A stretch of 58,839 nt of DNA from a candidate division WOR-3 bacterium (GTDB lineage Bacteria > SDB-A): the NCBI GenBank assembly GCA_016934535.1, contig JAFGSQ010000015.1:1-58839 (forward strand). Direction: 5' to 3'. A program made the position numbers and the translations under genes. The notes below the pieces were generated by a model that saw only the letters and a program-made list of their open reading frames with translations, was not told where the DNA came from and made no database searches. Positions 28,875 through 54,768 of this stretch are shown here, in pieces (the first letter of the stretch is position 1; the number at the start of each line of letters is the position of its first letter).

Positions 28875-30218
28875 ATGATTATGGACGGCAAGATAAGGAT
28901 AATGCTTGCCGAAGACGATCCTCATATGATGAAAGTAATGGGGGACGCTTTCGACGGCAGGAAATATGATGTTGTCAGGGAAGAAAACGGTTCGGAAGCT
29001 TTGAACAGACTTCTCGAAGAGGACTTCCATGTCGCTGTTCTCGACGATCAAATGCCCGGAACGGGCGGCATCAATATATGCAAAAGACTCAGAGAAGAAA
29101 ACAGAAAAAAAAGCCTTCCGATCATACTTCTGACCGCGACAACAGATCCCGCCGAAAGAATCGACGGATACCGTTCAGGCGCGGATGCCTGCCTTTCCAA
29201 ACCTGTTAATAACCAGGAAATGGTTGGGATAATCGAAAATCTTTGCCGTCAGAGATATGACAGCGAATTTATTCTCAGCAACATGAAAGGGTTTGGCGGG
29301 ACAGTCAGCAGTTTTCCGGTTGTTGACCTCCTTCAATTCATGGAGATGGGCGCTAAAACAGGTTCTCTCGAGATAAAAAGTTTTGAAAAAAGCGCCGTTG
29401 TTTATTTTGACAAAGGCGTAATTGTGCATTCCGAATCAGGAAGACTCAGGGGCAGCAACGCAATATATCACATAATAAGCTGGCAGGACGGAACTTTCGT
29501 CTATTCTCCCGACAAAATGCCGGCGGAGGTGACTGTCAGGGAAAACCTGTCACACTTGCTTCTGGAAGGCATCAGGCTTATGGACGAAGAGGCGAGGGAT
29601 AACACGGCCGTAAAAGAACTGACACAGGCTCTTTTACAAGTGGAAACTTCTACCGAATCAAAAGTATTGAAGAAAATGGAAGATCTCTCGAAGAAAATCG
29701 CTCTTGGCGAAAAAAGGATTTTCGAGATACTCGTAATTGACATCTGGAAAGACAGCCGAAAGGAAATGCTCGATTTTTTCATAAGCAGTATTTTGAAATA
29801 TATTGGCAGAGACGTTCAGGTCTCGAAAAAAGACAGCGCCATATCGAGCTTCGCGAAACTCGACGTGATGAAAGATTTTTCAATAGACATCGTAGTAAGC
29901 AGCGGGAAAAGAAAATTCAATCTTCTCTGGCAGGTTTTCCTGGAACAGGCAAACGCTCTCGTTGTTTTTGTCGATCCGACTAATGAAGAAGCAAGAAATG
30001 ACGGAATAGAAATAGCGAGGAGATTCAACAGCTACCGCTCTCAGATACCTTGCGTGATAATTTCTCCGGTCGGGCAAAAAGCGGCAGGTCTTCCTTTTGA
30101 AAATCCAAAATGGTTTGCGGTCCCGGAATACAATCTCATAAACCTCGAAGAGATTTTCCAGTTTATGTTCGATTTCACACAGGAACATTTTCTTGACGAA
30201 ATCGAAATGAGAAGATGA
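28875..30218 (+). CDS. Response regulator: REC + DUF4388 + degenerate small-GTPase-like C-terminal domain
   Basis: AEDD, LDDQMP, LSKP (REC); G.VSSF.VVDLLQF.EM..KTG.L, G.NAIY.IISW.DG.F, LLLEG.R..DE (DUF4388). Confidence 0.85.
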   Translation: MIMDGKIRIMLAEDDPHMMKVMGDAFDGRKYDVVREENGSEALNRLLEEDFHVAVLDDQMPGTGGINICKRLREENRKKSLPIILLTATTDPAERIDGYRSGADACLSKPVNNQEMVGIIENLCRQRYDSEFILSNMKGFGGTVSSFPVVDLLQFMEMGAKTGSLEIKSFEKSAVVYFDKGVIVHSESGRLRGSNAIYHIISWQDGTFVYSPDKMPAEVTVRENLSHLLLEGIRLMDEEARDNTAVKELTQALLQVETSTESKVLKKMEDLSKKIALGEKRIFEILVIDIWKDSRKEMLDFFISSILKYIGRDVQVSKKDSAISSFAKLDVMKDFSIDIVVSSGKRKFNLLWQVFLEQANALVVFVDPTNEEARNDGIEIARRFNSYRSQIPCVIISPVGQKAAGLPFENPKWFAVPEYNLINLEEIFQFMFDFTQEHFLDEIEMRR

Positions 30219-31177
30219 AAAAGATCTATATAATTGCCACCGGCGGTACAATACAGATGAGAAAAGAAACCGGAAAAGGCGTTATACCGGCTTATATAGG
30301 GGAGGACATTCTGAAAAATCTGATTCTGCCGGATGAGAATTTCAAATTGGAATTCGACGAATTTTCAAATGTTCCCAGCCCATGGATAAAACCCGAAGAC
30401 ATGATGAGAATATCGGAAAAAATCAATTCTCTAGCCCTTGAGTGCGACGGTATAGTGATAACGCATGGCACCGACACACTGGAAGAGACGGCTTATTTTT
30501 TATCTTTGACATACGACAAAGATACTCCGGTCGTAATGACTGCGGCTATGCGTGCCCCGCCTGATCTCGGGATTGACGGACCGAGAAATATTCACGATTC
30601 TGTCATGGTCGCACTGGAGAGTTCATCCATCGGCAGGGGGGTCATGGTGGTAATCAACAACAGTGTGTTTTCCCCGAGAGACGTGACAAAAGTCTCCACA
30701 TCAAATCTCGCCGCTTTTACATCGCCTGAATACGGTCTTCTCGGAACCATAGACGAAAAAGTCATATTCTTTTCGAAGAATGTACAAAGAGAAAACATAC
30801 ATGCAAACCGCCCGGTCGGTCCTGTTGATATCATTCCGGCTTATTCAGGAGCGGACACGAGGCTTATCTCGGCATCTGTTGACTCGGGTGCCAAAGGATT
30901 GGTCCTGGAAGCTCTCGGAAGAGGAAACGTGCCTCCAGGCATGCTCGAAGGTATTTTTTACTCCATAAACAAAGGTCTGCCAGTAATTGTCTCCACGAAA
31001 GTTCAAAACGGAAGAGTGGCGGCAACATACGGATATGAAGGCGGCGGCAAACACCTCGCCGGAATGGGGTGTTATTTCGCTGGAAATCTCCGGGCGAACA
31101 AAACGAGGATAAGGCTCATGCTCGCTCTCGGAACTGAGGATAAAGAAATGGGGAGGTATTTTGAAAAATTTGCTTAA
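30215..31177 (+). CDS. ansA: L-asparaginase, cytoplasmic type
   Basis: IATGGTI, THGTDTLEET, VTK..T...AF.S, G.GNVP; no signal peptide. Confidence 0.9.
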   Translation: MKKIYIIATGGTIQMRKETGKGVIPAYIGEDILKNLILPDENFKLEFDEFSNVPSPWIKPEDMMRISEKINSLALECDGIVITHGTDTLEETAYFLSLTYDKDTPVVMTAAMRAPPDLGIDGPRNIHDSVMVALESSSIGRGVMVVINNSVFSPRDVTKVSTSNLAAFTSPEYGLLGTIDEKVIFFSKNVQRENIHANRPVGPVDIIPAYSGADTRLISASVDSGAKGLVLEALGRGNVPPGMLEGIFYSINKGLPVIVSTKVQNGRVAATYGYEGGGKHLAGMGCYFAGNLRANKTRIRLMLALGTEDKEMGRYFEKFA

Positions 31178-32093
31178 AACACTGATTTTATTTTCAGCGC
31201 TGACTGTGGTTTTGTCCGGTCATCTCGCGGCTCTGACTCACACTGTCAAACTTGGTGAAACGCTGACATCTATATCGAGGATGTACGGGATTCCTGTTTC
31301 CCAGATCAAATCAGCCAACAATCTCGCTTCGGACATGATAGTTGAAGGCCAGAGGCTGACTATACCATCCGGTTCTTCGGGAAGCGGAGACCTGTATGTC
31401 GTTAAAAGCGGAGAAACGCTTTCCGGACTCGCTTCGAGATTTCAGACCACAGTTCAGGCGATAAAAAACGCCAACAATCTTTCTTCGGATTTCATAAGAG
31501 AAGGCCAGCGGCTCGTCATCCCGGGAAGATTTCCGCCTCCCAGGCAGGATACTGAACAGCAAAGACCTCCGGTAAACACTAACATAGTCATACCGAACGA
31601 AGAAAAGACCGCCCGTCCGGCCGTGATTGAATTTTCGGCGGTTTCGCCGGAACCTTTGGCACGCATTGCCCAAGAAACCGAAACCGCTGATGTTTACGAG
31701 GAAATTCCGCTATTGTCTGCCGAAAAAACCGAACTCGTTAAATCAATTTTAAACAGTGCGATTTCATATTTGGGCTCACCTTACGTTTACGGAGCCACAG
31801 GAAACGGAGGTTTCGATTGCAGCGGACTCGTTTTCAGGGTTTTTGCCGACAACGGCATCGATTTGCCGAGGACGGTTACTGATATGGAAAGCTCCGGAAT
31901 TGAAGCTCCGAAAGAGGCTCTGATGCCGGGCGATCTTCTTATATTCGACGACCCGAAACATGTGGGTATTTATCTCGGTTCTGGAAGGTTTATTCACTCG
32001 TCATCTTACAGGAACAGGGGAGTTATTATAAGCTCTCTCGAAAGAGAGAGCTATTCTTCCCGCTTTATAAAAGCGCGAAGGGTTGTTTACTGA
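31161..32093 (+). CDS. LysM x2 + NlpC/P60 cell-wall endopeptidase
   Basis: Signal peptide; HTVKLGETL and YVVKSGETL LysM repeats; YLGSPYVYG...FDCSG, HVGIY, FIHSS. Confidence 0.94.
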   Translation: MKNLLKTLILFSALTVVLSGHLAALTHTVKLGETLTSISRMYGIPVSQIKSANNLASDMIVEGQRLTIPSGSSGSGDLYVVKSGETLSGLASRFQTTVQAIKNANNLSSDFIREGQRLVIPGRFPPPRQDTEQQRPPVNTNIVIPNEEKTARPAVIEFSAVSPEPLARIAQETETADVYEEIPLLSAEKTELVKSILNSAISYLGSPYVYGATGNGGFDCSGLVFRVFADNGIDLPRTVTDMESSGIEAPKEALMPGDLLIFDDPKHVGIYLGSGRFIHSSSYRNRGVIISSLERESYSSRFIKARRVVY

Positions 32094-32113: not shown

Positions 32114-32159
32114 CTGCTGAAATCAATGAGTTGATTTTTGGCAGCAGTAATAATATCAT
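32114..32159 (+). promoter_or_regulatory. Putative sigma70 promoter of the TPR/MotA-ExbD operon with overlapping inverted repeat
   Basis: TTGATT (32131-32136), 17 nt spacer, TATCAT (32154-32159); inverted repeat CTGCTG-AAATCAA-tgag-TTGATTT-ttgg-CAGCAG. Confidence 0.45.
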
Positions 32160-32213: not shown

Positions 32214-33140
32214 ATGAAAAAAATACAGTATTTAATATTGTTTTTTATTGCGGGTACTGCGCTAAACGCGTCGCCTTTTCTTCAGGGCAACTACATCGAT
32301 GTACCGAACGCTTATATAATGCCTCATTCGAGCGTTCAGCTGACATCTATTTTCACAGTTTACGATCAGGATTTCACCACAGCAGGCGCAAATTACGAAA
32401 CTTTTTCGCAGTACATATTCGGGGCTAATCTTTCGGTCGGTTTGTACGACTGGTTTGAAGCGGGAGGAGGTTATCTCGGAACGGATGTTTGGTCGGGTTT
32501 TGTCAAGGCGAGAGTGTTAAGAGAAAGCGAAAAATATCCCGCTTTTGCTGTTGGAATCCAGAACATTTCGTCTCACAAAAAAATGTCCGAATTCGGCAGG
32601 CATTCTCTCGATTATTACGAATCAAGCCAGAATTTCTCGTTTTACGGAGTGGTGACCAAAGACATATCGTATTATTTCCCGAGGATTCCTGTAATTCTGT
32701 CTTTCGGCATCGGAAGCGGCAGATTTCAGGGGGAGAGACCCAGGTCAGAACCTTTGAAGGGCGTTTTCGCCGGCATTGAATTCAGACCGGTGAAAAACCT
32801 GAGATTCATAGGCGACATGGACGGAAAAGACTGGAACCTCGGAACTGTATTCAGGGCCAACGACAACATAGAGCTTCTCATGGCGTGGGTAGAGATCGAA
32901 CAGACATTCGGCGTCAAGTACAGCGTCAGACCTGTTCCCACCGAACAGCAGAAACTAATAATCGGCGTGCAATTCTCATTCGGGCCTTTCTTCGGCAGTA
33001 AAGCTCTTTCCGTCAGACGTCAGAGAGAACTCGAGATAATGAGCAATTACCAGAGAGAGCTCGAAGAGATAAGACGTAAAAGAGAAGAGGCTGAGAGAGA
33101 GCTCGAAAGACTTCGCAGAATCCTGGAAGAAAGCCAGTAA
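32214..33140 (+). CDS. YjbH-like outer-membrane beta-barrel protein with C-terminal coiled coil
   Basis: GGAGG SD; signal peptide; IDVPNAYIMP, KARVLRES..YPAFAVG, Y.V.TK, F.GIE; charged heptad tail. Confidence 0.65.
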   Translation: MKKIQYLILFFIAGTALNASPFLQGNYIDVPNAYIMPHSSVQLTSIFTVYDQDFTTAGANYETFSQYIFGANLSVGLYDWFEAGGGYLGTDVWSGFVKARVLRESEKYPAFAVGIQNISSHKKMSEFGRHSLDYYESSQNFSFYGVVTKDISYYFPRIPVILSFGIGSGRFQGERPRSEPLKGVFAGIEFRPVKNLRFIGDMDGKDWNLGTVFRANDNIELLMAWVEIEQTFGVKYSVRPVPTEQQKLIIGVQFSFGPFFGSKALSVRRQRELEIMSNYQRELEEIRRKREEAERELERLRRILEESQ

Positions 33141-33152
33141 AGGAATTATAAT

Positions 33153-34697
33153 ATGCTTTTTTGTTTGTTCGCTTTCTTTTTTACGGCTCAGGAACAGACT
33201 GTTCCTCTTTCGACGGACGAGATATATGAGGTCACCGATTCTGTTAAGACAGAATTAACTTACGAAAGACAGATTCTCGAAGACCTTTACGCCGAAATCG
33301 AACAACTGAGGATGGCGGTCGAGATTCCGCCTCCAATCAGCTCAGCCGACTCTCTTTATCTTAGAGGAGCTCTCGGTTGGGCAAAAGTCACTTACCAGAA
33401 TATCTACAATCACTTCATGTCACCGGACAGCCTTAAACAAAGAGCCATGTACATGTACTGTGTTATTTCCTATCAGCAGTCGGACTACAAAGAAAGTACG
33501 GAAAAAGCCGAAGAGTTTCTCCAAACTTATCCGGGAAGCTTATTTTCAGACAACGTATATCTGATTTTGTCTCTGTGTCACTTCTCGGTAGCGGATTTCC
33601 AAAAAACGAGGGACTACTGTTCGAGGATTTCGTCTTCTTCTTCCCAGTTTCCTTTCGCCCTCTACATAACGGCGATATCCTATTTCCAGGAAAATAAAAA
33701 CTCCGAAGGCATAAGTATGGCGAAAGAAAAACTCAACGAAATGGCTTTCGGCATATACTCCGGATACATGTCGGACGAATGGAAATCAAGGGCTCTGATG
33801 AGCCTGGCTCAACTGCATTACGAGCTCGGCGAACTCCAGACCTCCTATGAATATTATGAGCTCGCCAAAGACAAAGGTGCGGATCCAAACGCGGCCGATT
33901 TCGGGATTGCATGGATTTACATCAAAGTGGGTCTTCTCGACGAAGCCCTCGAAATAATTGAGAACCTCGAAAGGCGCGAAGACATAGACAAAATGTACAC
34001 GGATGTACAGCTCGCCAAAGCTGCCATTTTAATCCAGCAGGAATCGTACGAAAAAACATTCGATATATATTCAGACATACTTAAAAAGTATTCGAGCAAT
34101 TACAGTTATGAAGACGTCATAAATGCGGCTTACGAAAACGCCTTGTCCTCGATTGTCATGGAAGATGTGGACGCTACAAGGAATCTTGAGACCAGCCTCG
34201 AAAATCTGATCGCCCTTTCGAGAGTTAGAGGCAGGCAAGATGTTGTTGACAGTCTCGAAAAGATAAAATCAAGCCTGAGATTTCAGCAGGAAGTTCTGCA
34301 CTCGATAGGTTTTCAGATAAATCCTGCCGACCAGGCAGACCTGGATGTCCTCAAGCACAACATCACTTTGATGATCCAGGAGGAGAGATCCAAAACCGAA
34401 CTGCTGTTGATGGACATAAATTATCTGGAAACAAAACTGCCGTCCCAGCATCTCGGCGCACTCGACAGTATCAAATACAAGCTGACCGGAATATCACTGA
34501 TGCTGGCCGATATTGAAAACCAAATCGGAGCCCGAGGAGTCACGGAGACTACAAACTGGCTCATTCAGGCGCAATACGGGGCGGGAGTCACTTTTTTCAT
34601 GATGTACAAGGACGTCGAATCGCAGATATCTGAGATCAAATCGAGAATGCAGACGATAAGATACGAAATCGAAGGATCTCAGGGGACGGACAGATAA
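33153..34697 (+). CDS. Exported tetratricopeptide-repeat protein
   Basis: Short hydrophobic leader; TPR-like repeats (FLQTYPGS, ALMSLAQLHYELG, FGIAWIY) and coiled-coil segments. Confidence 0.78.
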   Translation: MLFCLFAFFFTAQEQTVPLSTDEIYEVTDSVKTELTYERQILEDLYAEIEQLRMAVEIPPPISSADSLYLRGALGWAKVTYQNIYNHFMSPDSLKQRAMYMYCVISYQQSDYKESTEKAEEFLQTYPGSLFSDNVYLILSLCHFSVADFQKTRDYCSRISSSSSQFPFALYITAISYFQENKNSEGISMAKEKLNEMAFGIYSGYMSDEWKSRALMSLAQLHYELGELQTSYEYYELAKDKGADPNAADFGIAWIYIKVGLLDEALEIIENLERREDIDKMYTDVQLAKAAILIQQESYEKTFDIYSDILKKYSSNYSYEDVINAAYENALSSIVMEDVDATRNLETSLENLIALSRVRGRQDVVDSLEKIKSSLRFQQEVLHSIGFQINPADQADLDVLKHNITLMIQEERSKTELLLMDINYLETKLPSQHLGALDSIKYKLTGISLMLADIENQIGARGVTETTNWLIQAQYGAGVTFFMMYKDVESQISEIKSRMQTIRYEIEGSQGTDR

Positions 34698-34698
34698 A

Positions 34699-37563
34699 GT
34701 GAGAAAGTATTCGGACTCTGTTTTTCTTCTTTTTATGTCCACTGTTGCGTTTTTCCTGTCATCATGCGGACCCGGACGACTGGATCCCGAACAGGAACTT
34801 CTTCGCCTCGAGAGCGAAAAAAAACAGCTCGAACTTCTTCAGGAAGAATACATGGACGCCACGGCTCTTTATCTTGAGAACCTGCTTTCTTTTTACCCGA
34901 ACAATCCCTTCGGAGCAGATGCCGCCCTGAGGCTTTCCGAAATTTACAGAATAAAATCCAAGAGTGAATACGAGCGAAGGATTGATGAGTGGATGACAGG
35001 CGGATTTTCCGGACTGGAACCATTCCCTGAGTACGGACGCGCCAAAAATATGTACATGCAGGTTATAACTAAATATGAAGGCATAGACACTGTATCGGCC
35101 ATTGAAGCGTATTACGCTCTCGCTTCGATACTTGAAGAAGAGGGCAGTGTTGATTCGGCAAGTATAATGTACAGGAAGCTCGTGGAAAGGTATCCCGGAA
35201 GCGCGAGGGCACCCGCAGCGTGTTTCCGGCTCGGTCTCTATTATTTCAATTTCAGGCACGAAGGGCTCGGAAAAGTGGATCTCGCCATAGATTATTTCGA
35301 CAAAGTCCTCGAATATCCTGACGATCCCAATTACGACAAAGCTGTTTATATGATTGGATGGCTCAACAGGGTTGCCGGACCCGATTCTATCCCCGCTTCA
35401 ATAACCCATTTCCTTTTCCTCCTCGAGATGTCGGCCGAGGAGGGAAGAACGGAACTTGCCGACGAAGCAGTCATGTATCTTGGCTTCGATTTTTCCGAGC
35501 TTCCAAACGGCACTATGAGGCTCCGCAGGGTGCTGACCGTTCTTTCGGAGATGCCAAAAGGCGACGAGATCGTCCTCAAACTCGCCGAGACTTTCAAAGA
35601 AAAGGTGGATTACCAAAAGGCAATTGAAGCGTACAATACTTACCTCGACATGTATCCGAAAAGTCCTGGTGCACCTTTTGTCCTGCGTGATCTGGCATCG
35701 CTTTACGCCGAAGTCGGAGACATGACTCTGGCCGACGCGACAATGGACAGGCTGGTCGAAGATTACGGAAAAGACTGGCAGGTCACTCTTGACAGCACCG
35801 GCGACACCGCGAGAGTGTCTTCCACCGACTCACTCATACGTGAAGCGATGCTTTACACAGCCGGAATACATCACAGAAAAGCCATTCAGGAGGGCACGTA
35901 TGAAGAGTGGTCCACGGCGGCTGAAAGATACGGAAATTTTATAGACCAGTATCCGGATGATCCTGAAGTTTACGGACTTAGATTCGCCCTCGCGGAAGCT
36001 TATTACGAAATGGGAAAATATATTGACGCCGCGAACAATTACACTCGTGTGGCTTTCGACGGGACATACGACACTTTGACCTTGCCGGCCGCCTACGAAG
36101 CGGTGACGTCCTTCAATCAATGGTATTCGCAGGACAGCTCTTCGGACGAGAGACAGGACAGTATGCTCGTCGCGGCTCAAAGGTACATGGGCGTGTGGGA
36201 CGAAAGACCCGGCACTGATATTTCAGATCCTGTCAACATTTCGATGTCAATGGGTAAAATGCTTTACGAGGCCGAAAGATACGAAGAAGCAAAGAACTGG
36301 TACATGAAAGTCATCGATGATTTTCCTTCTTCGGAAGCTTCCGCCTCGGCGTCGGCGATGATCGCCCAGAGCTACTACAATCTTGGAGACCTGTCTTCTT
36401 CTGAAAGCTGGTTCCTCAGAGCCGCCTCACAGTCAAGCGACACGACTTTGTCGAGGCAGGCTGCCCTGATAGCCTTTCAGTCAGCTTCGAATCTTACTGA
36501 GACGGACACTATGAAAGCCGCAACTTTCCTCGAAGTCCACGGCAAGTATTCAGACCGCGAAGAAGGGAAAAAAGCGCTTTTCAACGCCGGAGTCATTTTT
36601 TTCAACGCCGGTTACGAGACCAGAGCCGTTGAAGTTTTCAGATCTTACATTCGGAATTATGACTACCAGGAAGACAGCCTCCTTTATTCGGCGTACATGA
36701 ATCTGGCCAACATCGCCATTTCAAAGGCCGAAAGAGCTGACAGCGCGGGTCTTCAAAGCGGAAACCTCTGGAATGAGGCGGCGAGCGCCCTCGAATCATT
36801 CACCGCGAGATACCCTTCCTCCCAGGGAACCAAAGACGCCGTGTATTGGACTGGCAAATCGTTTTTCGGGGCGAGGAACTTCCAGGGGGCAGAGAATTCG
36901 TTCATGAGAGTTGCCAATGGTACGTCTTTTTCCGAAGAACTCCATTACCAATCTCTTCACAGGCAGGCTTTATCACTGGACAGTCTAGGTTTGAATTCAG
37001 ACGCTGACAATGTCAGAAGAAGGATATTGATGGATTATTTCGAAGGAGGCAGAGCCGCCGGTGTGTCGCCTTCAGAAATTGAAATGGACATGATAGATGT
37101 CGTAGAAATAGATTTTGAGACAATCAAGGGAACTGAACTTTACTGGCCGATTGACAATTCATATCCCCCATACGACGCCGACATGAAGGCTATCGCGGAG
37201 AATCTGACGAGAATAGCCGGCCTCAGAGCAGGGCTTTCGACAATAGCGGCTTTGTTCCTTCTCGGCCAGTGCAATGAAGATTACGCGAGAGCTTTCAGGG
37301 AAGCAGAGTATGACCCTTCGTGGACGGAAGATGAACAAATATATTTTCAGGAACAGCTGGAACAGCAAGCGCTTCCTTATGAAGATGCCGCGGTCCAATT
37401 CTATCTTGCGTCGATGCAGACTGCGGAAAGCAACGGGCTCACTGACAACAGATGGTACCGGGACGCTCAAGAGGCTGTGGAAAATCTTAAAAAATTCAGA
37501 CCGGATTTGTTCCCTGATGAACAAAACTATGATAGCATCGAAGAAGAAACAACTTCGCCTTAG
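34699..37563 (+). CDS. Large TPR lipoprotein, GltD/AgmU-like
   Basis: Lipobox LSSC; many TPR repeats ending YP.S; C-terminus ALFLLGQ..EDYARAF..A..DP..TEDE...F..QLE.QA.PYED.A...Y......A...G...NRW resembles AgmU/GltD. Confidence 0.72.
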   Translation: MRKYSDSVFLLFMSTVAFFLSSCGPGRLDPEQELLRLESEKKQLELLQEEYMDATALYLENLLSFYPNNPFGADAALRLSEIYRIKSKSEYERRIDEWMTGGFSGLEPFPEYGRAKNMYMQVITKYEGIDTVSAIEAYYALASILEEEGSVDSASIMYRKLVERYPGSARAPAACFRLGLYYFNFRHEGLGKVDLAIDYFDKVLEYPDDPNYDKAVYMIGWLNRVAGPDSIPASITHFLFLLEMSAEEGRTELADEAVMYLGFDFSELPNGTMRLRRVLTVLSEMPKGDEIVLKLAETFKEKVDYQKAIEAYNTYLDMYPKSPGAPFVLRDLASLYAEVGDMTLADATMDRLVEDYGKDWQVTLDSTGDTARVSSTDSLIREAMLYTAGIHHRKAIQEGTYEEWSTAAERYGNFIDQYPDDPEVYGLRFALAEAYYEMGKYIDAANNYTRVAFDGTYDTLTLPAAYEAVTSFNQWYSQDSSSDERQDSMLVAAQRYMGVWDERPGTDISDPVNISMSMGKMLYEAERYEEAKNWYMKVIDDFPSSEASASASAMIAQSYYNLGDLSSSESWFLRAASQSSDTTLSRQAALIAFQSASNLTETDTMKAATFLEVHGKYSDREEGKKALFNAGVIFFNAGYETRAVEVFRSYIRNYDYQEDSLLYSAYMNLANIAISKAERADSAGLQSGNLWNEAASALESFTARYPSSQGTKDAVYWTGKSFFGARNFQGAENSFMRVANGTSFSEELHYQSLHRQALSLDSLGLNSDADNVRRRILMDYFEGGRAAGVSPSEIEMDMIDVVEIDFETIKGTELYWPIDNSYPPYDADMKAIAENLTRIAGLRAGLSTIAALFLLGQCNEDYARAFREAEYDPSWTEDEQIYFQEQLEQQALPYEDAAVQFYLASMQTAESNGLTDNRWYRDAQEAVENLKKFRPDLFPDEQNYDSIEEETTSP

Positions 37564-37599
37564 TTATTCAGCCGGCGAAGAGTTTTCGACAGGCGGAAT

Positions 37600-38016
37600 G
37601 TGATGAAAAAAATAATATTTATTTTATTAATGCTCGCCGGAGCCCTCTGCTTTTCGCAGGAGATACCGAGCAGCATCCTTGAGATCGAAGAAATCGAGAT
37701 AAGGGGGACGGCAAGAGAACCTCTGGTCATAAACATCGCGGCAACGGCTAAAATTGATTTCTCGAATTTCATAATTTCGCAGAGTTTTTCGCGCGAGATC
37801 CTGAATCAGGTTTTCCAGGCGAGATCCGAACTCGGAATGATAGGCCGAAGACAGATAACGAGGCCTTATTCCAGGACTTTTCTTTTTTTGGGCGGAGCAG
37901 GAACAGCTGCCGGAGTCTATCTATTGTCGAGGGGTGAAAAATCCAGCGCTTATTTTCTGGCAGCGGGCGGAACATTTCTTCTCACATCCGGAATTTTTTA
38001 TCTGTCTGGCAAGTAA
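37600..38016 (+). CDS. Small exported protein, GltF/CglF-like, with extra C-terminal hydrophobic hairpin
   Basis: Signal peptide; LEIEEIEIRG.AREP.V..I motif; position between TPR and MotA/TolQ genes. Confidence 0.5.
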   Translation: MMKKIIFILLMLAGALCFSQEIPSSILEIEEIEIRGTAREPLVINIAATAKIDFSNFIISQSFSREILNQVFQARSELGMIGRRQITRPYSRTFLFLGGAGTAAGVYLLSRGEKSSAYFLAAGGTFLLTSGIFYLSGK

Positions 38017-38040
38017 TAATATTAAAGGAGGTTGATTCTA

Positions 38041-38661
38041 ATGGCTTTCATCCAGTTTTACAAGAATGGCGGATGGGCTATGCACTTTATCGCTCTTGTA
38101 GCTTTGGTATCACTCGGTTTGATAATCGAAAGGCTTGTTTTCCTGATGAGATCAGGCATAAATGCCGATAATTTCCTGCGCATAGTCACTAAAAAACTCA
38201 GAGACGGTGATTACAATGGGGCGATAAGGCACTGCGACGGAACCGGAAAACCTCTTTCAAAAATTATCGGTGCCGGCCTGAGAAACTACAAAGGCGACGT
38301 GAGGGAGATGCAGAACGCCGTTGATGAAGTTGGTCTCGCTGAAATCCCGAGATTGAACAAGCGCCTGAATTATCTTCCGGTTCTCGCTCAGGTTGCAACG
38401 CTTCTGGGACTTCTGGGAACCATAGCTGGTCTGTTGAAATCTTTCGGCGCTCTTTTGACGGCGAGTGCTTCAACCAGAACTTTAGAGCTTATTCAGGGCA
38501 TATCGGTTGCTCTCAATACAACCTTTTTCGGTTTGCTGGTCGCCATACCCGTTATGCTCTTGCATTCTTTTCTGCAATCCAGGGCAGACGGCATAGTTGA
38601 CGACATTGACGAATACTCGGTCAGGATTATGAATATGCTTCAGGACATAAAGAAGGATTGA
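38041..38661 (+). CDS. MotA/TolQ/ExbB proton channel protein (AglR-like)
   Basis: AAGGAGGT SD supports ATG 38041; GG..M, IIER, TLLGLLGTI.G...SF, GIS.AL.TT..GL.VAIP. Confidence 0.92.
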   Translation: MAFIQFYKNGGWAMHFIALVALVSLGLIIERLVFLMRSGINADNFLRIVTKKLRDGDYNGAIRHCDGTGKPLSKIIGAGLRNYKGDVREMQNAVDEVGLAEIPRLNKRLNYLPVLAQVATLLGLLGTIAGLLKSFGALLTASASTRTLELIQGISVALNTTFFGLLVAIPVMLLHSFLQSRADGIVDDIDEYSVRIMNMLQDIKKD

Positions 38662-38664
38662 CGG

Positions 38665-39342
38665 ATGTCTTACGCCGTATCCAAGGCCGGCCGGAAATAC
38701 AGACATCAGGAGGGGGTCAATGTCACTACGGTGCTCAATCTTTTTATGATACTGATTCCGGCGCTTTTGACGAGTTTTCAAATAGTTCAGACTTCCATCA
38801 TGAATCTGGAACTAGCCGGACTCGGAGCCGTCGAAGGAGAAAGCTATTTGCCTCCTCCCACATATTTCATGACGACTATTCTCGCGAGAACTAAAGACGG
38901 CAGGATAGTTTGTGAATTGTCCAGATACAGATACGTCGGTGGAGAATCCATAGCCGTTGACACTTTGATCGAAAAAACGCGGTTTTTTGAAGGTTGGGAT
39001 CAGGCTGACACTTTTATTGGGCAAAAACTCGACTCGCTTTTTATAGAGGCTAAAAAGGAAGTTACGGTTTTTCTGGACTCGACTCCGGAAGTACTTCTTG
39101 CCCCTAACTGGAGAGAGATAAAAACCGTTCTCAGGGAAAATCCTCAAGAAGGCGCGGTTATAGACAGCGTTGTCAGCAGACTAAACCTTTTCATACTTAT
39201 CTCGGTAGACAGCATAGGAGATGCCGTCAGCGGGGAAAGAGTAAATTTGAATGATCTCGTAAACTTCATGAAGATTTCTCAGAAAAACGGTTTTCAAAAC
39301 AATTACCTTCAGCCTCCTCCCTGGTGGCCTTCAGGATCCTGA
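38665..39342 (+). CDS. ExbD/TolR family protein 1, with enlarged periplasmic domain
   Basis: VNVTTVLNLFMILIP.LL TM segment; C-terminal LVNFM..S...GF.N. Confidence 0.7.
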   Translation: MSYAVSKAGRKYRHQEGVNVTTVLNLFMILIPALLTSFQIVQTSIMNLELAGLGAVEGESYLPPPTYFMTTILARTKDGRIVCELSRYRYVGGESIAVDTLIEKTRFFEGWDQADTFIGQKLDSLFIEAKKEVTVFLDSTPEVLLAPNWREIKTVLRENPQEGAVIDSVVSRLNLFILISVDSIGDAVSGERVNLNDLVNFMKISQKNGFQNNYLQPPPWWPSGS

Positions 39343-39355
39343 AACGGAGAGAACT

Positions 39356-39967
39356 ATGCCAATAGAAACCGACCGGACTTCTGATAAATCGTGGAAATGG
39401 TTTCCCAAACCTCCCACCAAAAGAAAGATGATGTTCAGGAAGTCCATTTCGTCTCTCAAATCATCAAACTCATCCAGGGGACCGGGTTCGGAGAGGCAAA
39501 CTCCAGTCCTTCAACTGACTTCACTCATAGACATGTTCACGATAATTCTAATATTTCTTCTTCTTAATTTTTCGACAGATCCTAATCAGAGCCCTCCTCC
39601 AATGGACGTAAACCTTCCGACCGTCATTTCGGAAGAAGAAATTGAAGAGAAAACTCGTGTGGGTGTAAACGTTGTAACGGCGAACAGTTATTCCATCACG
39701 CTCGATCAGACTTCGATAATCGAATCGGCTGAAAAAATGCCGGCGAAAACAGACACTTTCATAGCTCCGCTTCTCGACAAACTAAGAGAGACTTACGAGA
39801 TCGCTATTCAGACTGCGGAAATAAACCAGATTGACCCTGACTCAGTAAAAGTAATAATCCAGGCCGACAGCCTGGCCAGTTATAATCTGATTACTCAGAT
39901 TGTCAACACCTGCACGATGGCAGGATACAAAAAAGTTTCGGTTATGGTTATAACACCGAAATACTGA
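39356..39967 (+). CDS. ExbD/TolR family protein 2 (AglS-like)
   Basis: LQLTSLIDMFTIILIFLL, V.LP, VIIQAD....Y..I..IV.T...AGY..V. Confidence 0.9.
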   Translation: MPIETDRTSDKSWKWFPKPPTKRKMMFRKSISSLKSSNSSRGPGSERQTPVLQLTSLIDMFTIILIFLLLNFSTDPNQSPPPMDVNLPTVISEEEIEEKTRVGVNVVTANSYSITLDQTSIIESAEKMPAKTDTFIAPLLDKLRETYEIAIQTAEINQIDPDSVKVIIQADSLASYNLITQIVNTCTMAGYKKVSVMVITPKY

Positions 39968-39985
39968 CGGTTTAAAGGGGGAAAA

Positions 39986-41836
39986 ATGGAAGAGATCAAA
40001 CTTGCCGTAGTTGTTCAGCAGCAGGGCAAGCGGAGACATTTCGTCGTCGAGAAAGATCTCATCGCCATAGGAAAGAGCGAGGATTGCGAGATTGTGATAC
40101 AGGAGGACGTTCCCGGGATTTCCGACAAACAAGCTCTTTTCTCATACAACGGCGTGAACAATTCATACGAACTGAGGATCAAGCCGGATGTATTCAGAGG
40201 ATGGATAAAAATCGGCGAAGACGAGGTGTCTGTAAAGGACATAGCACTGCGTGCGAAGGTGAGAAAAGAAGGTGATCAGATAATTCTTCCTCTTGATCCC
40301 GCGAGCAGGGGAAGAATTCAGGTTGGCGGAACAGTAATCGGATACGGTTTTCAGTCTTTTGCCAAACCGCAGGAAAGAAAGACCGAGGGAACCGGTTCCG
40401 CAATTTTAACGGGGTGGGTTGAAATTATTCAGGGTGGCAGGTTGAAAAAGTACCTCGTCAAGAATAACCAGGTTTTTCTTGCGGGCAACACGCCCCGTTC
40501 AGCTGTCCGCGAACCTTCCATAGAAAAAGAACTCAAGCTGTTCTGTTCTTCTGACAAGCGTTACGTTTTGACCCTTGTCCCCGGTTTCAACGGAGTCATT
40601 AACAAGGATGGAGAAAGAATCAGAATTGACGAAGAGTATTTTGTTTCAAACAATATTCTGGAAAAGAAATTCGAACTCGGACCGGGAGACAGAGCCGACC
40701 TCAAATACCTGAACAGCTTCATAGTCAGGCTCGGAGTCAGGGAAGAAGCCGTTCCCAGGGAAGCGGTCAAGTCTCCTCTAAAACCTCCCGAACCGGAAGT
40801 AAAACCCCAGCCAATAGAAAAAGAACGGGGAAAACCGAAATGGGAGAGATTTAACAACAGGCCTCACGACAGGCTCACCATAGGAGAGCACACCAAGGAC
40901 AGAAAGCAATTCGCAATATTCGATTTTACGACCGTGGTTTTCTGGGTCTTCTGGATAATATACTCTTTCACCGTAAGAGTTGAAGCGCTCAATATTAACA
41001 TTGCCACCGCAGAAGAAACATTGAAAAGACTCGAAGAGAGCGATCTTCTCGACGTTTCTATGAGCGAAGACATAGAAAGCCTCAGGCGCGGAACCCTTGG
41101 AATGACTACGACCGGAGAGGGCACTGGAGAAGGAACATCCTCGGGTTCGGGTTCAGGATCCGGAAGCGGAGCGGGATCCGGAAGCGGGGCGGGAGGAGGC
41201 ATCGGCCAGGGCGGGCAGACATCGAGAGTGGCCAGGGGACTGAGAGTTCTCGGCGTCGGATCGGGTCCGATGACCGGACCGATGGGACTCGGCGGCGGAG
41301 ATGCGAGCATTCAGGATCTGTTGGCCGGAGGTGCTTCGTTGTCAGGCGTCTCCGGAGGAGCGGCTTCTGCGGCGGGGGGAGCAGGAGGACTCGGAGGAGG
41401 GGTCACCGGGACAGTTGGAGTCACAGGAGGCACGGAGATATCAACGGGCACTGCGACTGGAGGCGATCTTCAGCATCAGAGAACAGCGGGAGTCAGGGGA
41501 GGGACAATTGCCGACCTGACTGGTTCGGCGGCCACCTCGGGCGCGCGAGACGCCGCGGACGTTCGAAGAGCAATAGTCAGGTACCAGGGAAGGCTCAAAT
41601 ACTTTTACGAGAAGGAACTGGAAGTCAATCCTTCGCTTCAAGGAAAGATCGTCGTCAGAATAACGATTTCGGAAGAAGGCTTCGTGTCGAACGCATCGCT
41701 TGTCAGCAGCACTCTGGGTTTGCCCTCCTTGGAACAGCAGATATTGTCGGCGATAAGCGGATGGTCTTTCGGTCCGATAGATCCGGGAGGCGGATCATTC
41801 ACCTTCACTGTTCCTTTTAATTTTTACAGCCAGTGA
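39986..41836 (+). CDS. GltG/PglI-like protein: two FHA-like domains, TM helix, Gly-rich linker, AgmX/PglI-type TonB-C domain
   Basis: C-terminus DVRRAI.RY.G.LKY.YEKEL..NPSLQGKIVVR.TI...G.V....V.STL....LE..I...I..W.F. Confidence 0.82.
   Translation: MEEIKLAVVVQQQGKRRHFVVEKDLIAIGKSEDCEIVIQEDVPGISDKQALFSYNGVNNSYELRIKPDVFRGWIKIGEDEVSVKDIALRAKVRKEGDQIILPLDPASRGRIQVGGTVIGYGFQSFAKPQERKTEGTGSAILTGWVEIIQGGRLKKYLVKNNQVFLAGNTPRSAVREPSIEKELKLFCSSDKRYVLTLVPGFNGVINKDGERIRIDEEYFVSNNILEKKFELGPGDRADLKYLNSFIVRLGVREEAVPREAVKSPLKPPEPEVKPQPIEKERGKPKWERFNNRPHDRLTIGEHTKDRKQFAIFDFTTVVFWVFWIIYSFTVRVEALNINIATAEETLKRLEESDLLDVSMSEDIESLRRGTLGMTTTGEGTGEGTSSGSGSGSGSGAGSGSGAGGGIGQGGQTSRVARGLRVLGVGSGPMTGPMGLGGGDASIQDLLAGGASLSGVSGGAASAAGGAGGLGGGVTGTVGVTGGTEISTGTATGGDLQHQRTAGVRGGTIADLTGSAATSGARDAADVRRAIVRYQGRLKYFYEKELEVNPSLQGKIVVRITISEEGFVSNASLVSSTLGLPSLEQQILSAISGWSFGPIDPGGGSFTFTVPFNFYSQ
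41100..41530 (+). repeat. Low-complexity Gly/Ser/Thr coding tract including an 18-nt tandem repeat
   Basis: GGATCCGGAAGCGGAGCG / GGATCCGGAAGCGGGGCG at 41156-41191; encodes GSGSGAGSGSGAGGG. Confidence 0.7.
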
Positions 41837-42828
41837 AATCACTGACAATTATACTTTTTTCGGCGATTCTTGTTTTCTTTTCTGTAAAACAGTCGCTGTG
41901 CGCCGTTTTTGTACTCGTCGAACAGGAAGAGCTGGCGATGGAACAAGTGCAGAAATTCATTGATTCTGTTGCCGATCTCGGCGTAGACGGAATAGTCGTG
42001 GATGTTTACAAAGACGGCCGGACTTTGTTCCCTTCCGAATATTTTGAGTTTACGTACACGTACGACGTACTCGATGAGATCATTTACTGCGCCAAAATGA
42101 AAAATCTTCTTGTTTTTTTCAATCTAGATATTTTCAGGATTTGGACTCAATCGCTTTCGCCTTCCGTCCTTTCTCACATCTTTCACAGGCACAAGGATTG
42201 GCTTTTAGCCGACGAAACAGGCAGAAGCATGAGTTCGTATTCTCTCGAAGACCTGAGAGAAAGATTCGGCGTCGAAGGCTATTACGTTTCCCCTTCAAAC
42301 AGGGAGTACGGGTTTCTGATCTATGGACTGATTCAGGAGCTGTCTGAAAAATACTTCTATTCCGGAATTGTTTTATCAGGTGTATCGGTCCCCGGTTCCA
42401 GGTGGTCGTACGATGTTTATACATTAACTGAATTCATGAGAACTAATTATGCAGATCCCAGAGAAGAAGGGCTGTCTGGACTACTCGAGGAAGAATGGAA
42501 CTGCTTCAACGACGGAGCCTCAGAAAATTTCCTGAAAAGGCTTTTGGCTACAGCCGATTTGAAGGGATATGTCGCTTTGAGACTGGAAAAGGGTTTTATG
42601 CCCGCATCACTGATTCAGTCGGATCTCGCGGATATTCTGGTAGCGGATTCAAATTGGGTAACCGCGAAAAATTTTCCGCCTAAAACTCTTTCCGACATGA
42701 TAAAAGAGAGAGGATCTTCTGAATTCATTGTTCTGGACAACGCCAGAGACATTCTGAGAATAATCGGCTACAAGGAAATGATACGAATCGCAATGGATCA
42801 GATCAGGGAAGAGGAGGCCAGAAAATGA
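41833..42828 (+). CDS. Glycosyl hydrolase-like 10 (DUF187/YddW-DigH-like) protein, divergent
   Basis: Signal peptide; G.TLFPS, YDVL..II..A....L, H.DW, YYVSPSN.E; GTG start overlaps the upstream TGA. Confidence 0.65.
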   Translation: MKSLTIILFSAILVFFSVKQSLCAVFVLVEQEELAMEQVQKFIDSVADLGVDGIVVDVYKDGRTLFPSEYFEFTYTYDVLDEIIYCAKMKNLLVFFNLDIFRIWTQSLSPSVLSHIFHRHKDWLLADETGRSMSSYSLEDLRERFGVEGYYVSPSNREYGFLIYGLIQELSEKYFYSGIVLSGVSVPGSRWSYDVYTLTEFMRTNYADPREEGLSGLLEEEWNCFNDGASENFLKRLLATADLKGYVALRLEKGFMPASLIQSDLADILVADSNWVTAKNFPPKTLSDMIKERGSSEFIVLDNARDILRIIGYKEMIRIAMDQIREEEARK

Positions 42829-43198
42829 ATCTCGCGCAGTTCTCGCATCTTTCAACAGAAGTGTGATTTTTTACTCTTTGAAAAACTTCGGCCGGTATTC
42901 TGTTTGAACATCCCACGCAGTATCCTTCTCCCCTGTCTTCTCTCACCGGGACAATTGCTCTCGGGATCAGGTCCTGATTGTATTTCTTCATCAGCCGCTG
43001 ATATTCTTTCATAAGAACAGAAGGGAGTTTTTTAAGCAGTTTTTCTTTCGTGTTTTGAAAATTATTGACTGTGCCTTCGTCGAAACTCATCCCGATTTCC
43101 TTCAGTTTTGAGAGATATCTGTCGTTTGAGAGTTCGCTTATGTAAGTCTCCGCGTTGTCTACGGCGAGAAGGATCTCGAGCTGTTCATTCATTGGCAT
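42803..43198 (-). CDS. C4-type zinc ribbon domain protein (DUF164-like, short)
   Basis: Y.RL....AIVPV....CVGC...IP and CENCARFI. Confidence 0.85.
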   Translation of the reverse strand: MPMNEQLEILLAVDNAETYISELSNDRYLSKLKEIGMSFDEGTVNNFQNTKEKLLKKLPSVLMKEYQRLMKKYNQDLIPRAIVPVREDRGEGYCVGCSNRIPAEVFQRVKNHTSVERCENCARFIFWPPLP

Positions 43199-51026: not shown

Positions 51027-51509
51027 ATGAAAAAGAAAATTTTGAAATTTTTTTTAATTGTATTTTTTTTGGCATTATTGGCAGTTGTGACAATATCAGC
51101 AGATATAGTCTTCAACGACGGATTGTTCTTTAAAAATGCCGTCGCTTCGAGTATTTTCAGTGTCAAAAACGCCGAGGACGAGTACATGTCCATAAACCTC
51201 GACAGAACGAGATATCTTGAGTCAATTGTCATTACTAATGCCTACATGGTCCAGAAAGCCGCAGAAGAGTATGCAAGTTATAACGGTGGATATTATCCGG
51301 ATGGATATGCACATTTAAACCTACCATATAGTAGTATAATCAATCCTTTTGATTCGCTAGGCAATTGGATTATTGATGATGTTCAATATGGTGTTGAGGG
51401 AAAAGTAAGTTTTTGCTCTACTTTTGGAACACTGCCGTACACGATTATTGCTGGAGGAAAATACGGAAGAAAAATAATAACTCTCCACAGCTCATACGGC
51501 TCAAATTAG
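51027..51509 (+). CDS. Pilin-head homologue with Sec-type signal/anchor in place of the prepilin N-terminus
   Basis: AGGAGG SD; C-terminal ~100 aa align with the 54385 pilin (ES.V..NA...Q.AAEEY.....G.Y.DG.A.L.LP...I.NPF...YTI..GGK....IITL); no G|FxxxE motif. Confidence 0.75.
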   Translation: MKKKILKFFLIVFFLALLAVVTISADIVFNDGLFFKNAVASSIFSVKNAEDEYMSINLDRTRYLESIVITNAYMVQKAAEEYASYNGGYYPDGYAHLNLPYSSIINPFDSLGNWIIDDVQYGVEGKVSFCSTFGTLPYTIIAGGKYGRKIITLHSSYGSN

Positions 51510-51517
51510 GAGGAAAC

Positions 51518-54040: not shown

Positions 54041-54325
54041 AGTGTTTAAAAAACCGCATACCATGATTTTAAACGCCTTTAAAAAAATATTGCAATTTTT
54101 TTACCAAAAGAGTAATATCTACGCTATGAGGAAGGAAAGCGTGTTGAGTTATCACTATGATTATGGTCTTATAAATGAACACCATGAAAACATGTCGCAT
54201 AATTATGAATATTGGAGCAGGCAAAATGCAATAATATGTCCGGTAAATTGCAATATGCGAGAAGAAATTTTTAGTTGTGTATTTCCAAGTGTCGGTAATA
54301 AGCATTTTGTGTATTTAACCAATTA

Positions 54326-54341
54326 TGGCACAAGCATTGCT
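54326..54341 (+). promoter_or_regulatory. Sigma54 (-24/-12) promoter 2
   Basis: TGGCAC-AAGCA-TTGCT, matches consensus, about 45 nt upstream of the pilin. Confidence 0.85.
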
Positions 54342-54384
54342 TGAAAAGCGGTATGAATATAGAATTTAGCAAAGGAGGTTTAGA

Positions 54385-54768
54385 ATGAAGAAAGGATTTT
54401 CACTGATCGAACTGATGGTCGTTGTGGTCATCATCGGCATTCTCGCCGCGATAGCCATACCGAACTTCATCAGACTGAGAGACAGGGCGAAAGAGTCTGA
54501 AGTAAAAGCCAATGCCCACACATGCCAGCTTGCAGCAGAAGAGTATTCAACAACAGCAGATGGAAATTATTGTGATGGTTTTGCTACTTTGACTCTTCCT
54601 TCGAATATCAAGAATCCGTTTGCTGCTGGCGCCGCTGTTGTCGATGATGCTGCTCCGGGAGAGGGAGAAGTTTCATATCAACATGGTGCCTTTGGTGCTT
54701 CAGCATACACAATTGTGGGTGGTGGAAAGGGCGCAGTGCCAATTATTACCCTTTCTCCCGGACAGTAA
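54385..54768 (+). CDS. pilA: Type IV pilin (IVa-type short leader), probable major pilin
   Basis: AAGGAGGT SD; MKKG|FSLIELMVVVVIIGILAAIAIPNF; own promoter and terminator. Confidence 0.92.
   Translation: MKKGFSLIELMVVVVIIGILAAIAIPNFIRLRDRAKESEVKANAHTCQLAAEEYSTTADGNYCDGFATLTLPSNIKNPFAAGAAVVDDAAPGEGEVSYQHGAFGASAYTIVGGGKGAVPIITLSPGQ

Follow-up and report, generated by a model that had tools for sequence, protein, structure and literature searches.

Two well-studied machines of Myxococcus, the Agl-Glt gliding machine and the Agl-Nfs spore-coat machine, are presumed to descend from the Agl/Glt core complex. Luciano et al. (2011, PMC3169522) describe a core cluster made up of GltC, GltD, GltE and GltG, of AglR, AglQ and AglS, and of one extra gene, with hosts among the gammaproteobacteria, one betaproteobacterium, Geobacter and Fibrobacter succinogenes; in their treatment of it, the core alone cannot drive gliding and occurs in non-gliders, and its function is left open. 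Wartel et al. (2013) describe the core complex as a basal transport machinery. The published model of the M. xanthus machine (PMC11761067) places GltG around GltD and GltC between GltD and outer-membrane barrels, with AglR5-AglQ-AglS as the motor. The Agl-Nfs machine is described as moving polymer exported by Wza (PMC3858216). Among the titles listed by a literature search, none was a later study on core complexes outside the Myxococcota. Here we analyze a 58,839-nucleotide stretch of DNA ("the window"; contig JAFGSQ010000015.1 of GenBank assembly GCA_016934535.1, our contig C24) from a candidate division WOR-3 bacterium, which carries at 32214-42828 an operon of nine genes belonging to this class. 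The host genome comprises 2.23 Mb in 76 contigs, with a completeness rating of 100%, and its GTDB phylum is small, with six species genomes that fall into a single family and three genera. Proteins of the operon are named by their length in amino acids (aa), from P308 to P331.

The operon is a genuine and complete cluster of the Agl/Glt core type, and it probably encodes a trans-envelope force transducer of that class, driven by the proton-motive force. An earlier note on this DNA, made from the sequence alone, had proposed an Agl-Glt-like machine outside the myxobacteria; the proposal holds for the core but does not describe something new, since Luciano et al. had already reported the class, outside the myxobacteria too, in 2011. 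Listing and translation of the open reading frames (ORFs) agree with the nine co-oriented genes of that note, all on the + strand and packed tightly, with intergenic distances from gene 1 to gene 9 of 12, 1, 36, 15, 3, 13, 18 and -4 bases. Set against the published description of the Luciano core complex (not compared gene by gene), the likeness extends to a single cluster, one MotA/TolQ-like protein, two different TolR-like proteins, a GltG-type protein, a giant GltD-type tetratricopeptide repeat (TPR) protein, a further TPR protein, and at least one gene without a Myxococcales homolog. The differences are the absence of GltE, an Asn in the subunit at the AglQ position, a YjbH-like barrel as the first gene, a GHL10-like gene as the last, and a host from a WOR-3-like phylum of six species.

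Comparison with the two M. xanthus machines gives a similar picture. With Agl-Glt (PMC11761067) the operon shares the GltG architecture, a GltD central TPR pillar, and a TolR-like plug of two different subunits, the AglS one with a long N-terminal tail; it differs in that its FHA-like domains are degenerate, that one plug subunit alone has the Asp, and that neither a GltA/B-type model match in the genome nor a GltE or GltJ match among the operon proteins was found (GltH, GltI, GltK and CglB were not searched). With Agl-Nfs, which is described as acting on surface polysaccharide (PMC3858216), it shares an Agl motor and a GltC/D/G-type transducer, and a relative of its P308-P514 pair stands beside Wza/Wzc-like genes in another genome (G033); Nfs differs in having NfsA/B barrels of the OMP_myx_plus type, together with NfsE, NfsF and NfsH. 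What is particular to the present operon is that its plug has a single Asp, that GltE is lacking, that a YjbH-like barrel is present and that a GHL10-like gene specific to the lineage has been added. Sequence comparison establishes the homology of P209, P203, P616 and P954 to Agl/Glt parts as well as the conservation of the operon, and structure prediction gives P308 an outer-membrane barrel fold.

P209 (38032-38661) is an AglR-type MotA/TolQ/ExbB proton channel subunit. Its match to MotA_ExbB (PF01618, Pfam) reaches 87.9 bits, bearing out the MotA/TolQ gene of the earlier reading. A maximum-likelihood tree was built from 36 MotA/TolQ/ExbB proteins, namely the window family, three host paralogs, the motors of the related clusters in genomes G029 and G034, and PF01618 proteins of five Myxococcota genomes (30 of 33). 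P209 lies inside a 13-row clade (support 100/98) together with the Glt-linked G029 and G034 motors and with Myxococcota trios of one MotA plus two TolR proteins, one of which sits 6 kb from a GltG gene (L021). The host's ExbB and its third MotA do not belong to this clade and fall into the next larger group that has support, and the host's TolQ groups with Myxococcota TolQ, apart from P209. These placements are those of a MotA/TolQ homolog of the AglR lineage.

P203 (39356-39967) fits the AglS-type TolR-like subunit: its N-terminal tail, on the cytoplasmic side, is long, and in the alignment it keeps the conserved Asp of the membrane helix. It matches ExbD (PF02472, Pfam) at 55.6 bits. Profile-profile comparisons, for which hhalign was used in local mode, give 97.9% (E 6e-13) between P203 and the second TolR-like protein of the Myxococcota trios, the long tail being common to both, and at most 1.7% between P203 and the host's own TolR and ExbD proteins. 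A search of 401 sampled genomes with an AglS-type model (E ≤ 1e-8) matched 81 of them (75 of 395 outside the phylum), and in the host genome the model matches P203 alone.

The other half of the plug, P225 (38665-39342), has a long insertion and draws no Pfam or NCBIfam match at all, so that of the "two different ExbD" proteins claimed earlier P203 is borne out and P225 appears TolR-like only by its position, its membrane helix and its alignment to counterparts in other clusters. Against the Asn-type counterparts of G029, G034 and of a third genome, G104, it reaches 95.7% by hhalign. All four proteins of this type (window, G029, G034, G104) have Asn at the membrane-helix site that is Asp in TolR, in ExbD and in the Myxococcota proteins. 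The wider sample gives the distribution of this feature: 20 clusters matched by the AglS-type model were fetched (L170-L189), and the residue at the AglQ position, readable in 18 of them, is Asn in 9, Asp in 7, Ser in 1 and Gly in 1, while the Asp of the AglS-type subunit is kept in 19 of 19 readable genes. The AglQ-position subunits of these clusters split into an Asp type, Myxococcota-like in sequence, and an Asn type with an "MNL...LIPxLL" helix.

P616 (39986-41836) is the transducer. Its two FHA-like domains lie in the cytoplasm; a membrane helix and a linker lead from them to a TonB-like C-terminal domain of the AgmX/PglI type. By sequence this is the architecture of M. xanthus GltG, for which two FHA domains, one N-terminal and one central, are described (PMC11761067), followed by a membrane helix, by a long disordered stretch that wraps GltD and by a TonB-like C-terminal domain. 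The C-terminal domain scores 25.4 bits on TonB_C (Pfam) and 78.3 bits on the NCBIfam model of the AgmX/PglI C-terminal domain (NF033768), passing the cut-off of 40; the linker (the 150 residues 370-520) is 70% Gly/Ser/Ala/Thr. The domain order given in the earlier note thus stands for the linker and the TonB-like end, as does its likening of that end to AgmX/PglI, while the FHA-like domains are degenerate and remain below the Pfam cut-off (17.6 versus 20.7 bits). For GltC, GltD and their partners, reference ORFs were taken from 79 loci (L019-L097), comprising 36 GltC, 38 GltD-like, 43 GltE, 41 GltF and 45 GltG proteins. Against the 45-sequence Myxococcota GltG set the C-terminal domain of P616 reaches 98.8% (E 4.6e-17), versus 2.5% against the host's TonB and 1.1% against its TolA, and the second cytoplasmic domain reaches 66% against the central FHA region of GltG. 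P616 aligns over its full length with proteins of 640-765 aa that have FHA, a membrane helix and TonB_C. A word-based homolog search found 15 proteins, few of them beyond the window's lineage; a genome-wide scan seeded by the P616 alignment found 337 loci, and most of the best 80 have Myxococcota-type names, a distribution biased by the Myxococcota-dominated seed alignment. No match to the GltJ model was found for P616 in the NCBIfam scan.

Further proteins with the same C-terminal domain were seen. A 425-aa paralog of P616 is encoded on host contig C50 (L017:6713-7990), with the same RPHD motif as P616 beside its membrane helix, and with a linker and a C-terminal domain of the AgmX/PglI type. 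It matches at 99.3% by hhalign over 304 columns, has an acidic N-terminus that is not FHA-like and no motor gene nearby, and occurs in 6 of the 6 genomes of the phylum; it could be a GltJ-like second transducer. A small exported protein on host contig C23 (L018:7424-7660, a 143-codon frame with a lipobox) is little more than an AgmX/PglI-type TonB-like domain, and in G104 a 132-aa exported protein, mostly the same domain, is encoded directly after GltG (L165:14797-15195).

P954 (34699-37563) is a TPR lipoprotein (lipobox LSSC) and, by profile comparison, the giant periplasmic TPR protein of GltD type. It has many TPR matches together with YbgF-type repeats (TIGR02795, the YbgF/CpoB repeat, 132.7 bits). 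Against the 38-sequence Myxococcota GltD set its family reaches 99.7% (E 2e-25) over 841 columns, residues 65-950 aligning with 150-1200 of 1255, versus 53% for GltC, 36% for GltE and 15% for the host's YbgF. P954 is thus specifically GltD-like, its non-TPR ends included, and the GltD resemblance named in the earlier note is upheld. NCBIfam scans turned up no GltD model. By NCBIfam matches, the order on a Myxococcales chromosome (L092) is GltC, a 1226-aa TPR protein, GltE, CglF/GltF and GltG (CglF is GltF, PMC4488436), and in 36 of 80 loci tblastn places P954 matches upstream of the GltG gene.

P514 (33153-34697) is a periplasmic TPR protein that appears GltC-like from its place in the cluster and from a weak match of profiles: its TPR matches are weaker than those of P954 (Pfam and NCBIfam), and the NCBIfam GltC model (NF033756) gives 26.1 bits versus a cut-off of 450. 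With a four-sequence family hhalign gives 87.5% for GltC and 77% for GltD; with six sequences the values are 96.6-97.1% (E 5e-10 to 6.5e-11) and 94.8%. In G104 the P514-like and P954-like parts occupy a single frame of 1513 codons (L165:5826-10367), apparently a fusion of GltC-GltD type, which argues that the two work together and would support direct contact between them.

P138 (37600-38016), an exported protein with a signal peptide, whose C-terminus is hydrophobic and rich in Gly, is a possible GltF counterpart. It matches no Pfam or NCBIfam family, the GltF/CglF model (NF033764) included, and it occupies the position of GltF in the cluster. When the hidden Markov model of the P138 family is run against 5744 ORFs, the top row is a GltF protein (E 0.088), and GltF proteins make up 11 of the top 20 rows. 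A motif, E[DE]xx[VI]xGxxxxP, is common to P138, to the small proteins of the G029 and G104 clusters, and to 26 of the 41 Myxococcota GltF proteins; examples are EEIEIRGTAREP in P138 and EEMVIRGKIQKP in the small protein of G029. The motif occurs 4 times in the 1.31 million residues of the host's ORFs. Because it was picked after the sequences had been viewed, it serves as a lead only. The GltD and GltG profile matches foreseen in the earlier note were obtained, and that of GltF was not.

The leading gene encodes P308 (32214-33140), a protein with a signal peptide, a predicted outer-membrane beta-barrel of about 12 strands and a C-terminal helix (262-307). AlphaFold2 with an alignment of 60 sequences gives 12 strands and the helix at a pLDDT score (predicted local distance difference test) of 85 and a predicted template modeling (pTM) score of 0.75; this fold was used because one from 8 sequences was poor (pLDDT 55). 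Among the Foldseek matches listed from the PDB, all are outer-membrane barrels, natural or designed (Ail, OmpA, FadL, FapF, a type-9 translocon chain). One relative of P308 (P0022) has an OmpA domain C-terminal to the helix, which places the helix of P308 in the periplasm. The barrel in the earlier description as "YjbH-like" is thus supported; the YjbH label is below threshold, with 16.3 bits on PF06082 versus a cut-off of 24. P308 would be a distant relative of the YjbH/GfcD-type exopolysaccharide-associated outer-membrane proteins: YjbH matches at E ≤ 0.01 are found in 17 of 60 P308 relatives as well, but P308 has half the length of the 658-position model and ends in a coiled-coil helix. A word-based search found 6 homologs, few beyond the window's lineage, and a library of 1.84 billion proteins yielded 153 relatives at E ≤ 1e-3.

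Outside the phylum, a search of 121 genomes found full-length homologs of P308 at four loci: as leader of the G104 cluster, elsewhere in G104, beside pyrimidine genes (G090), and in G033. At the last of these (L167:4286-10293) the homolog, whose YjbH score of 26.6 bits passes the cut-off and which has a C-terminal TPR, is followed by a P514-like TPR protein, a Wza-like protein (Poly_export and SLBB) and a Wzc-like protein (Wzz and P-loop), an arrangement that resembles capsule loci of the gfc/yjb type. Judged by these loci, the barrel is an add-on module, possibly one linked to polysaccharide. One Wza-like gene is present in the host genome, on another contig. The GltA/B-type OMP_myx_plus barrel (TIGR04565), which the earlier note had stated to be absent from the operon, has no match at E ≤ 0.001 anywhere in the host genome (rated 100% complete). 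By hhalign, P308 shows no similarity to the GltA/B-type barrel of G034 or to a 194-aa protein of G029.

The last gene encodes P331 (41833-42828), an exported, divergent GHL10/GHL6-like protein whose start overlaps the P616 stop by 4 bases. Its GHL10 score (PF02638) is 22.9 bits, below the cut-off of 27.9, as is that of the ortholog in G004 (27.0 bits); the orthologs in G005 and in the same genus have no GHL10 match at E ≤ 0.01, so that 2 of 4 orthologs match. Every look-alike listed from the ESM Atlas has a GHL family, with GHL10 present in each case. Identity with E. coli DigH, which itself scores 453 bits on GHL10, is 18% over 103 aa, and the best hits among PDB sequences are alpha-galactosidases at E of about 0.6. 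P331 is the fastest-evolving gene of the operon, and no counterpart is among the scanned cluster genes of G104, G029 and G034. Its membership in the machine is argued from the 4-base overlap and from conservation within the phylum. Of the cell-wall-hydrolase-like gene coupled to the end of the operon, as the earlier note had it, the coupling by overlap remains; by sequence, P331 looks like a lineage-specific add-on, only weakly GHL10-like.

Gene order is kept among relatives, as had been expected: it holds in all three genera that the phylum has, and likewise in one genome unrelated to it. From the response regulator upstream to the ABC transporter downstream, the order is identical in L014, G004 and G005, which represent all three genera. 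Identity between genera is 80-82% for P209, 68-75% for P203, 65-66% for P225, 58-59% for P954, 54-55% for P308, P138 and P616, 44% for P514 and 29-38% for P331. The parallel cluster of the unrelated G104 (67% GC) consists of a P308 homolog, the 1513-codon P514/P954-like frame, a 149-aa protein with the motif, a MotA protein, two TolR proteins (one Asn-type, the other Asp-type), a GltG-like protein of 631 aa and a small protein resembling TonB_C; a GHL10-like gene is absent there. G029 and G034 have related clusters with different leading genes, the leader in G034 being a GltA/B-type OMP_myx_plus barrel, and the G029 cluster has a GltE-like gene (69.1 bits).

Several results weigh against the assignment to the Agl/Glt core class. 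The label "Agl" for the clade of P209 comes from gene context in mostly metagenome-assembled Myxococcota genomes and from NCBIfam models, with no M. xanthus sequence in the tree. P225 has no detectable similarity to the Myxococcota AglQ-position proteins (hhalign 1.7%), and in the alignment it has Asn in place of the proton-binding Asp of AglQ type (D28 in M. xanthus). P616 scores 68.9 bits on the GltG equivalog model, leaving the cut-off of 650 unreached, and for P514 GltC is the best guess but not a specific one. The operon has no separate GltE-like gene, as the earlier note had also remarked; the sole trace in the NCBIfam scan is an E of 0.03 on one TPR of P954. The P138 family has no hhalign match to GltF, and the GltF model misses P138 among 9683 host ORFs. 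The barrel is not tied to Glt clusters, since one of the four outside loci with a P308 homolog leads a Glt-like cluster. Finally, unrelated flanking genes are syntenic too, so conservation within the phylum does not by itself define the operon.

A second, divergent system of the Tol-Pal kind, serving envelope integrity or cell division, would have the motor energize a TolA-like P616 while CpoB-like TPR proteins coordinate peptidoglycan remodeling by the flanking hydrolases. Both kinds of system combine a proton channel of 5:2 type with a transducer resembling TolA/TonB and with CpoB-like TPR repeats across the envelope; TolQ is the best NCBIfam model for P209, the YbgF/CpoB repeat score of P954 is high, a LysM-NlpC/P60 endopeptidase gene lies 120 bases upstream, and E. 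coli DigH, the strong GHL10 protein, is annotated in the K-12 record as a divisome-localized glycosyl hydrolase, the DigH paper being one that also treats Tol-Pal. The host, however, has a complete canonical TolQ-TolR-TolA-TolB-Pal-YbgF cluster on contig C26, and the operon has neither TolB nor Pal. P209 stands in a clade separate from TolQ, the C-terminal domain of P616 is of another type than that of the host's TolA, P954 resembles GltD rather than the host's YbgF, and half of the P331 orthologs, in a family only weakly GHL10-like, have no GHL10 match. We regard this explanation as unlikely. Still less probable is a specialized ExbB-ExbD-TonB system energizing uptake through an outer-membrane transporter, to which we give hardly any credence. 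Its parts list would indeed read MotA/ExbB, ExbD and TonB_C, and a B12/heme-type ABC importer lies downstream of the operon on the opposite strand, but the operon encodes no TonB-dependent receptor (TBDR), P308 has no plug domain (Pfam, predicted fold), the P209 clade excludes the host's ExbB, the C-terminal domain of P616 is far from the host's TonB, and a TBDR-ExbB-ExbD-ExbD-TonB cluster is present elsewhere in the genome. With separate Tol-Pal and ExbBD-TonB systems in the host, the operon is an additional machine, not the host's Tol or TonB system, and, as the earlier reading required, both the tree and these separate clusters set its motor apart from canonical TolQ and ExbB.

That the machine moves the cell over surfaces, as M. 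xanthus Agl-Glt does, is very unlikely in our judgment. The core it has in common with the gliding machine, and a DUF4388-domain response regulator encoded three genes upstream, speak for it; yet Luciano et al. (PMC3169522), in their account of the core, have it present in non-gliders and not driving motility alone, and the host genome has no GltA/B-type barrel, nor was there a GltE or GltJ match (GltI, GltK, CglB, AglZ and MglA were not searched).

For a core-type force transducer, the M. xanthus model suggests how the parts might act, and it is from this published model that protein contacts, stoichiometry and output are inferred. A P209 pentamer would surround a heterodimeric plug of P225 and P203. 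With a protonatable Asp on P203 only, proton flow would bring about a conformational change passed to the membrane helix of P616, whose long flexible Gly-rich linker would cross the peptidoglycan so that the TonB-like end could dock on the TPR lipoprotein P954. P954 in turn would couple to the barrel P308 through P514 and perhaps P138. Most likely the machine's output is to move or anchor a component of the outer membrane or the cell surface, which may be a surface glycan as in Agl-Nfs; gliding is the less likely output. The lead toward a glycan comes from the P308/P514-like pair beside Wza/Wzc-like genes in G033, from the single Wza-like gene of the host and from the precedent of Agl-Nfs. A more far-reaching proposal, which we hold to be rather unlikely, is that the non-myxobacterial form has an obligate heterodimer plug, with a single Asp on the AglS-type subunit and a fixed Asn on the AglQ-type subunit, that its ancestral role was to organize or anchor Wza/Wzc glycan via a YjbH-type barrel, and that Myxococcus gliding and spore coat assembly would be later elaborations of a capsule-handling motor.

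What the operon adds to the class is a compact, complete example from a tiny uncultured phylum, together with three details that leave the class assignment unchanged. The plug naturally carries Asn where the change from Asp to Asn paralyzes the M. xanthus motor (the AglQ D28N mutation is described as abolishing motility and sporulation, PMC3858216). The apparent GltC-GltD-like fusion in another lineage would support direct contact of these two proteins, and the pair of barrel and TPR protein is found beside polysaccharide export genes as well. Because the host organism cannot be manipulated, progress would depend on culturable carriers of the same type.

The surroundings of the operon are conserved along with it. 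Upstream, at 28875-32093, lie genes for the DUF4388 response regulator, an asparaginase and the LysM-NlpC/P60 endopeptidase, with overlaps of 4 and 17 bases between neighbors and with synteny across all genera. The 120 bases between this group and P308 hold a promoter-like site (32131-32159), the one signal in a promoter and terminator scan that goes beyond shuffled expectation. Downstream, a gene for a 131-aa Zn_ribbon_9 protein on the - strand (42803-43198) converges on P331 and overlaps its 3' end by 26 bases; the gene is kept in G004 and G005. On host contig C38 (L015:10792-17767), the third MotA/ExbB gene, which has no adjacent ExbD, stands beside genes for a PorV-like barrel and Por_Secre_tail proteins, an arrangement that hints at a type-9-like secretion system in the lineage. 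Farther along the window, at 51413-54768, a protein of 875 aa with FG-GAP repeats and an end resembling FlgD_ig is followed by a 127-aa protein with a pilin-type N-terminal methylation motif, in a region of low G+C content (35-39%).

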